Notes under the pieces: generated by a model
Databases searched by the model: none
What the model saw: the letters and a program-made list of their open reading frames with translations, nothing else
Told to the model about the DNA's origin: nothing
In this document: positions 63,827 to 64,000 of the stretch, piece by piece
Numbering within the stretch: the first letter of the stretch is position 1
Layout: every line of letters begins with the position of its first letter
Translations under genes and position numbers: made by a program
NCBI RefSeq assembly: GCF_003334765.1
Contig: NZ_QOWT01000014.1
Source: Escherichia coli
Lineage (GTDB): Bacteria > Pseudomonadota > Gammaproteobacteria > Enterobacterales > Enterobacteriaceae
Length of the DNA stretch: 64,000 bases
Direction: 5' to 3' (one strand)

Positions 63827-63861
63827 AGGCTGGATAAGACGCGCCAGCGTCGCATCCGGCA
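63827..63861. repeat. REP element followed by T-run (probable mobB terminator)
   Basis: aggctggataagacgcgccagcgtcgcatccggca then ttttttt. Confidence 0.75.
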
Positions 63862-63880
63862 TTTTTTTCTGCGCCAATGC

Positions 63881-63905
63881 AAAAAGGCCATCCGTCAGGA
63901 TGGCC
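63881..63905 (-). terminator. rRNA-operon distal terminator (T2-like)
   Basis: Minus strand reads ...ccgccataaactgccaggcatcaaattaagcagaaGGCCATCCtgacGGATGGCCttttt, matching the familiar rrn T1-T2 terminator region. Confidence 0.75.
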
Positions 63906-64000
63906 TTCTGCTTAATTTGATGCCTGGCAGTTTATGGCGGGCGTCCTGCCCGCCACCCTCCGGGCCGTTGCTTCGCAACGTTCAAATCCGCTCCCGGCGG

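Follow-up and report, generated by a model that had tools for sequence, protein, structure and literature searches.

The distal end of the rrnA operon beside mobB in Escherichia coli: terminator T2, the 3′ part of the small RNA gene rrA, and a REP element

RESULTS

Gene content and identity of the locus

The stretch of DNA analyzed here (the window) is 64,000 nucleotides (nt) long and ends, on its right-hand side, with mobA, mobB, and 182 nt of intergenic sequence (63819 to 64000) that run up to the edge (Table 1). The coding sequence of mobB is 100% identical to the annotated mobB of K-12 and of the human fecal strain H3 (NZ_CP028732.1) and closes with a TAA stop codon at 63816 to 63818. Read on the minus strand, the 182 nt past this codon are CCGCCGGGAGCGGATTTGAACGTTGCGAAGCAACGGCCCGGAGGGTGGCGGGCAGGACGCCCGCCATAAACTGCCAGGCATCAAATTAAGCAGAAGGCCATCCTGACGGATGGCCTTTTTGCATTGGCGCAGAAAAAAATGCCGGATGCGACGCTGGCGCGTCTTATCCAGCCTACTCTTGC. 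When compared with the sequence beyond the 5S gene in all seven K-12 rrn operons, they matched K-12 rrnA at 182 of 182 positions. The window and the chromosome are collinear over all 64 kb. Strain H3 shows 100% identity to the last 25 kb, and MG1655 shows 99.98% identity; over positions 10190 to 64000 (approximately 54 kb) the comparison with MG1655 gave 12 substitutions, including those at 60432 and 61214, along with 184 extra bases. The source is an E. coli strain resembling K-12 but distinct from it.

TABLE 1 Positions, strands, and supporting evidence of features in the window
Feature	Position	Strand	Basis
SECIS element of fdoG	19484–19542	+	Rfam, gathering level
STnc370	44441–44509	−	Rfam, gathering level
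ES222	46399–46506	−	Rfam, gathering level
CsrC	53435–53688	−	Rfam, gathering level
Spot 42	54717–54835	−	Rfam, gathering level
mobA	62725–63309	+	NCBIfam TIGR02665 (MobA), 230.6 bits, well above cut-off
mobB CDS, 175 aa	63291–63818	+	ORF; NF008021 (MobB), 342.6 bits (cut-off, 204)
Single REP element, GCCGGATGCGACGCTGGCGCGTCTTATCCAGCCTAC	63825–63860	−	Consensus fit; core pattern; partial naRNA4 match; imperfect hairpin
T7 run	63862–63868	+	One base past the REP hairpin on the mobB strand
T2 of rrnA	63881–63907	−	Hairpin plus U5; identical to rrnB T2
rrA, 3′ 89 nt	63912–64000	−	Identity to rrB; ends transferred
18-mer AACTGCCAGGCATCAAAT, second copy	63915–63932	−	18/18 match to 5S end
rrA hairpin GGCGGGC-AGGAC-GCCCGCC	63936–63954	−	GGA in loop, candidate CsrA site; fold of T1 to T2
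rrA hairpin CGUUGC-GAA-GCAACG	63966–63980	−	Fold
rrA hairpin AAAUCCGC-CGGGA-GCGGAUUU	63984–64000 (full, 64004 to 63984)	−	GGA in loop; fold

The sequence past the edge was read from the two reference genomes, in which the stretch from the 5S gene to the mobB stop codon is the same. In H3, window position 64000 corresponds to record position 115010, and the 5S gene annotated by PGAP ends 89 nt beyond it; in K-12, the 3′ end of mature 5S rRNA (rrfA, 4040636, from the 120-nt 5S of NC_000913.3) falls at window-equivalent position 64088. A search of the equivalent K-12 site with Rfam returned 5S rRNA at 90.5 bits (E = 4e-20) and the 3′ end of 23S rRNA (LSU) at 67.2 bits. In both genomes, the rRNA and tRNA genes lie contiguously, on the same strand, and upstream of the segment, in the order hemG, 16S, tRNA-Ile, tRNA-Ala, 23S, 5S, followed by the window segment and mobB. 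Since the flanking genes are hemG and mobB, the operon is rrnA, and mobB converges on it. A first-pass annotation, made from the letters of the window, had placed a 5S gene on the minus strand roughly 100 nt beyond the edge, as part of an rrn operon, with mobB as the last protein gene before it. These predictions were borne out, with the 5S gene found 88 nt away in a complete operon and the annotation confirming the place of mobB. From genomes identical over 25 kb, the sequence past 64000 is expected to read ATTTGTCCTACTCAGGAGAGCG, then the complement of T1, then the complement of rrfA from +88. For annotation purposes, the window ends within the rrnA terminator region, 88 nt before rrfA.

Terminator T2 and its counterparts in other rrn operons

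The DNA hairpin GGCCATCC-TGAC-GGATGGCC is followed on the rRNA strand by UUUUU, and the transcribed strand thus carries the GC-rich hairpin and U-tract of an intrinsic terminator. This is T2 of rrnA, in which the 5′ arm GGCCATCC runs from 63905 to 63898, the UGAC loop from 63897 to 63894, the 3′ arm GGAUGGCC from 63893 to 63886, and the U5 tract from 63885 to 63881. In the RNA, GGCCAUCC-UGAC-GGAUGGCC forms an 8-bp stem of six G-C and two A-U pairs, which two further possible A-U pairs would extend to 10. The computed fold has a free energy of −22.8 kcal/mol (z = −6.9), and none of 200 shuffled sequences was equally stable. The minus-strand motif AAGGCCATCCTGACGGATGGCCTTTTT that the first-pass annotation had quoted is indeed present, from 63907 to 63881. 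A simple terminator scanner run on 63200 to 64000 did not report T2; this is an artefact of the tool, because its greedy stem extension takes four of the five U's.

T1 lies beyond the window, at window-equivalent 64043 to 64082 (fold, −32.7 kcal/mol; z = −10.1), and the window contains T2 and roughly two thirds of the spacer between the terminators. The first 122 nt of the minus strand (64000 to 63879) are identical to rrnB (122/122; E = 5e-68) and 94% identical to rrnD. The earlier description of the last ~120 nt as the rrn T1-T2 segment is consequently right for T2 and part of the spacer, whereas T1 is outside. The dual terminator region of rrnB is said to go back to Brosius et al. 1981 and reportedly serves as a cassette in vectors of the pKK223-3 and pTrc type. 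The likeness to it extends from the interior of the spacer through T2 to CCTTTTTGC, with the same hairpins and the same 18-mer, and directly after CCTTTTTGC the rrnA and rrnB sequences part ways. Past T2, rrnA continues with GCATTGGCGCAGAAAAAAAT, REP, and mobB, whereas rrnB has its own flank towards murB. Outside the window, the T1 loop has a G in rrnA and an A in rrnB (GTCGGAAGAC versus GTCGAAAGAC). The distal end of K-12 rrnG also shares the T2 hairpin and the flank past it, in which the A7 run and the greater part of the REP sequence recur (95% over 99 nt), but it is a short form that lacks T1 and the rrA body and has T2 directly after 5S. An rrnB-type T1-T2 region at rrnA is a textbook feature and is already known. 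At rrnB, the termination efficiency is 87% for T1 and 100% for T2 (Orosz 1991, as cited in PMC8144298); by sequence identity, similar termination may be expected at T2 of rrnA.

A REP element between mobB and T2

After T2, the rRNA strand reads GCAUUGGCGCAG and a run of seven A's, and then enters a repetitive extragenic element from 63860 to 63825. REP elements are extragenic imperfect palindromes with the consensus GCC(G/T)GATGCG(G/A)CG(C/T)...CTTATC(C/A)GGCCTAC. The element here fits this consensus on the minus strand with one deviation (CAGCCTAC) and sits between the stop codon and the terminator, its end six bases from the mobB stop codon on the opposite strand. Its core pattern, GCCKGATGCGRCGY, lies at 63847 to 63860 (minus strand) and occurs in 12 copies within the window, against 0.01 expected. 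A match of 63825 to 63860 (minus strand) to naRNA4, a REP-derived Rfam family, was below threshold (31.7 bits; E = 7e-4). The interval that the first-pass annotation had given for the terminator region must be corrected on this point, as its first ~40 nt (63825 to 63860) are the REP element and not rrn terminator. The same REP flank is also found 3′ of the K-12 rrnG terminator.

A run of seven T's comes after the REP hairpin on the mobB strand, and the plus-strand fold of 63819 to 63875 has a free energy of −24.8 kcal/mol (z = −3.4). The REP hairpin with its U7 tract is a plausible candidate for an intrinsic terminator, or a 3′-end stabilizer, of the mobAB mRNA. The terminator scanner did not list this site within 63200 to 64000; the only two sites that it reported were both inside the mobB coding sequence.

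The T1-T2 spacer carries the 3′ part of rrA

A published small RNA (sRNA) interpretation of the T1-T2 spacer already exists. Dual terminators end three of the seven K-12 operons, rrnA, rrnB, and rrnD, and read-through of T1 produces sRNAs from the genes rrA, rrB, and rrF (Stenum et al. 2021; PMC8144298). The ends of RrB, a 173-nt RNA, were mapped to 3 nt past the 5S 3′ end, which is an RNase E site, and to 3 nt past a second copy of an 18-mer proposed to be the RNase E recognition site; in K-12, with rrnB, RNA of this type is trimmed to about 115 nt and is short-lived (PMC8144298). The sRNA binds Hfq, and it binds CsrA with a Kd of about 100 nM through GGA motifs, two of which lie in hairpin loops; discrete processed RNAs were seen, and GGA mutants lose CsrA binding (PMC8144298). 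Deletion and overexpression gave modest phenotypes with the same direction of effect, and conservation of the sequence and hairpins is reported across no fewer than 31 species belonging to 12 genera (PMC8144298). A point made by the same authors is that the T1T2 cassette on many expression plasmids contains rrB and gives rise to an unintended Hfq- and CsrA-binding RNA (PMC8144298).

Window positions 63912 to 64000 are the rrA locus itself. When the ends of rrB are transferred by identity, the 173-nt RrA would span window-equivalent 64084 to 63912, and the window has only the 3′ 89 nt of this full-length RNA. Within that portion, rrA is 100% identical to the experimentally characterized rrB and includes all but one of the five GGA motifs found in the short form. 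The computed fold of rrA recovered five GGA motifs and placed two in hairpin loops, and its body consists of three GC-rich hairpins between 63936 and 64004; the window edge removes the first four nucleotides of the 5′ arm of the hairpin AAAUCCGC-CGGGA-GCGGAUUU. The entire stretch from T1 to T2 folds at −110.7 kcal/mol (z = −8.2). Because RefSeq K-12 has no rrA annotation (NC_000913.3, 4040637 to 4040905) and no Rfam 15 family reached its gathering score in window 63819 to 64000, standard pipelines leave rrA blank.

In the 18-mer, the last 13 nt of 5S rRNA are followed by the first 5 nt of its trailer. Two other contents of the spacer were considered and rejected. In rrnD, the layout is 5S-tRNAThr-5S; by analogy, a hidden tRNA was sought in the spacer, and ARAGORN found none, nor did Rfam give a tRNA match at E ≤ 10. 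A second 5S remnant was likewise discarded, with no Rfam 5S match at E ≤ 10 and only the 18-mer being derived from 5S. Rfam matches to STnc70, C4 antisense RNA, MicC, and assorted miRNA and snoRNA families were far under their gathering scores and reflect generic hairpin or terminator likeness. As an observation on K-12 rrnD, the 3′ end of rrfF and its downstream copy of the 18-mer carry the same G-to-A variant (GCCAGACAT). The repeat thus varies together with the 5S gene that precedes it, pointing to local duplication or gene conversion.

Kinship with tRNA-linked repeats

The sequence between the terminators has been assigned to the tRNA-linked repeat (TLR) family, whose hallmark is that 18 to 19 nt from the 3′ end of the stable RNA upstream are repeated (PMC8144298, citing Egan & Landy 1978 and Rudd 1999); the 18-mer is this 3′ repeat (PMC8144298). 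The unit at rrnA starts right after rrfA, in the same operon, and its 3′ end is identical to the end of the upstream stable RNA at 18 of 18 positions (63915 to 63932). Like the tyrT repeats and the corresponding Rfam family, RtT (RF00391), it is transcribed together with the stable-RNA gene that lies directly 5′ of it and finishes with an 18- to 19-nt copy of the 3′ end of that RNA. It differs from the tyrT repeats in being linked to 5S rRNA and not to a tRNA, and in being a single unit with no tandem array.

In a gapped local alignment of the spacer with one 178-bp tyrT repeat, the score was 29, compared with 16.0 ± 2.4 for dinucleotide shuffles, of which 2 in 2,000 reached 29. The part of rrA closest to the tyrT repeat comprises the hairpin at 63966 to 63980 and the next block, GCCCGGAGGG; the block GA(A/G)CGTTGC..GCAACG(G/A)CCCG(G/A)AGGG is shared, at an equal distance from the terminal repeat. 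The RtT model gave 17 to 19 bits on the spacer (E = 0.3 to 0.5; gathering score, 45), and blastn-short found no match between the rrnA tail and the tyrT repeats. These comparisons are suggestive, though not conclusive, of sequence kinship between the spacer and the tyrT TLRs.

Strain-level variation of the T1 + rrA unit

T1 and rrA form a unit of 168 bp between the two 18-mers. Using positions 63760 to 64000 as the query (the 3′ end of mobB to the edge) at a coverage of at least 80%, we found the long form next to mobB in 1,171 of 5,426 complete E. coli genomes, a set that includes many laboratory K-12 derivatives. In most of the other genomes, the match breaks off precisely at query position 173 (window position 63932), the end of the 18-mer, where the sequence runs on into the 5S gene. 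The second 18-mer is the downstream boundary of a 168-bp indel, and the rrnA tail of strain EC195 differs from that of K-12 in lacking precisely the 168 bp that separate the 18-mers. The order in most strains is 5S, a single terminator, REP, and mobB, and the flank made up of mobB, REP, and terminator passes directly into the body of 5S at 63920. The prediction of the 5S position succeeded only because the window holds rrA spacer sequence beyond the 18-mer. A count with 5S included in the query was nondiscriminating, because the 80% coverage threshold is likewise passed by long forms that carry the REP flank at other operons.

Some strains depart from this pattern. In A22 and STEC719, the single terminator has a T1-like stem and a T2-like tail. 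Strain A7, which lacks yjaA, has a long form with the same REP flank at rrnE, next to yjaB; the T2 loop there reads GTCA in place of TGAC, so the palindromic hairpin is flipped.

A full-length rrA body was found by megablast in 3,941 of the 5,426 genomes, and blastn gave the same count; the median among carriers is 2 copies, and K-12 has 3. Both programs found no full-length rrA/B/F-type unit anywhere in the remaining 1,485 complete genomes (~27%). The number of such units per genome ranges from 0 to 9 places, with plasmid and vector copies included. The genes were treated as conserved in the published work (PMC8144298), whereas the rrnA copy is present here in ~22% of complete E. coli genomes. 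The REP element, the identity of the segment as the rrA sRNA gene, and the minority status of the long form in E. coli are three things that the first-pass annotation missed.

DISCUSSION

Collectively, these findings indicate, with a probability that we put at about 95%, that window positions 63819 to 64000 are the intergenic tail between the convergent mobB (plus strand) and rrnA (minus strand), a reading that takes in the order of elements, the mechanism, and the cassette proposal given here. No result speaks against the identification itself. In the order proposed for the rRNA strand, 5S (ending at 64088) would be followed by T1 (64043 to 64082), the rrA body, the 18-mer, T2, and the REP element abutting the mobB stop codon. 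Polymerase leaving rrnA would stop mostly at T1, with about 13% reading on through rrA and T2 halting essentially all of it. RNase E cleavage 3 nt after each 18-mer would then free the 173-nt RrA, an RNA likely to be trimmed to about 115 nt, to be short-lived, and to be bound by Hfq and CsrA through its GGA motifs. These termination and processing steps are taken from a single paper on rrnB in K-12 and older work cited there. We suggest in addition that T2 may shield the convergent mobAB genes from antisense transcription out of the very strongly expressed rrnA, and that the REP hairpin with its T7 run may end or stabilize the mobAB mRNA.

The variation between strains can be accommodated if T1 + rrA is a cassette that recombination can switch between exact 18-nt direct repeats, the long form being the minority state next to mobB. 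This part of the proposal is tentative, and we give it slightly less than even odds. Recombination between the 18-mers, or gene conversion among rrn operons, could remove or add the cassette, and such events would explain its minority presence next to mobB. The spacer might instead be functionally neutral, left over when the 5S end and its terminator were partially duplicated; T2 would then serve as a fail-safe only, and the binding of Hfq and CsrA in vitro would be physiologically inconsequential. As a duplication predicts, the same 18-mer precedes both T1 and T2, and both begin with similar trailers (CAAATAAAACGAAAGGC and CAAATTAAGCAGAAGGC). Single-terminator short forms such as that of K-12 rrnG are common, and the absence of the unit next to mobB in ~78% of genomes, and altogether from more than a quarter, also favors this view. 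A variable cassette also fits the weak published phenotypes, modest and in the same direction for deletion and overexpression (PMC8144298), and the duplication-relic view, with T2 as a fail-safe, stays alive for this reason. Against it stand the conservation of sequence and hairpins across genera, the discrete processed RNAs, the CsrA affinity, and the binding loss of the GGA mutants (PMC8144298); the K-12 copies are moreover 94 to 100% identical, though gene conversion could equally account for that. On balance, we regard a neutral relic as unlikely, but as an account that deserves serious weight.

The role of T2 itself can also be read differently, as that of a mainly bidirectional terminator that also ends mobAB and belongs to mobB as much as to rrnA. 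Its stem is a perfect palindrome, the plus-strand fold reaches −21.6 kcal/mol (z = −5.5) with UUCUGCUUAAUUUG directly after it, and the genes converge with only 182 nt from the mobB stop codon to the window end. The U-tract on the plus strand is poor, however, and a polymerase leaving mobB would first meet the REP hairpin and U7, which lie between the mobB stop codon and T2. The same T2 is also present at rrnB, rrnD, and rrnG, none of which has mobB converging on it, and we consider this role improbable. Finally, a match to rrnB T1T2 could in principle reflect a cloning-vector cassette or an assembly artefact and not a chromosomal rrn operon, as the cassette is common on plasmids and our searches gave 30 to 80 places on plasmid records. 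The sequence nevertheless runs without a break into the rrnA-specific flank (GCATTGGCGCAG, REP, mobB), departing from rrnB right after CCTTTTTGC, and the collinearity of the 64-kb window with the chromosome rules out a vector origin; we accordingly give it next to no credence.

The presence or absence of T1 + rrA from strain to strain is the only item here that is even mildly new. If it is unreported, the dual terminator and the RrA, RrB, and RrF sRNAs would be accessory features that vary among strains and not a fixed component of E. coli rrn operons, and natural isolates would provide ready-made knock-outs for testing the proposed link between CsrA and growth rate. The variation of the cassette offers a modest lead on whether RrA/B/F or dual terminators have any role in fitness.

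Elsewhere in the window, five further RNA features reached the Rfam gathering level (Table 1). One of them, the CsrA antagonist CsrC, is another CsrA-binding RNA and lies ~10 kb from rrA; we take this to be a coincidence. The cluster of REP/BIME sequences between rhaD and rhaA (10190 to 10418) is 184 nt longer than in MG1655, owing to two extra units of ~92 nt, and contains two matches to the naRNA4 family that exceed the gathering score.
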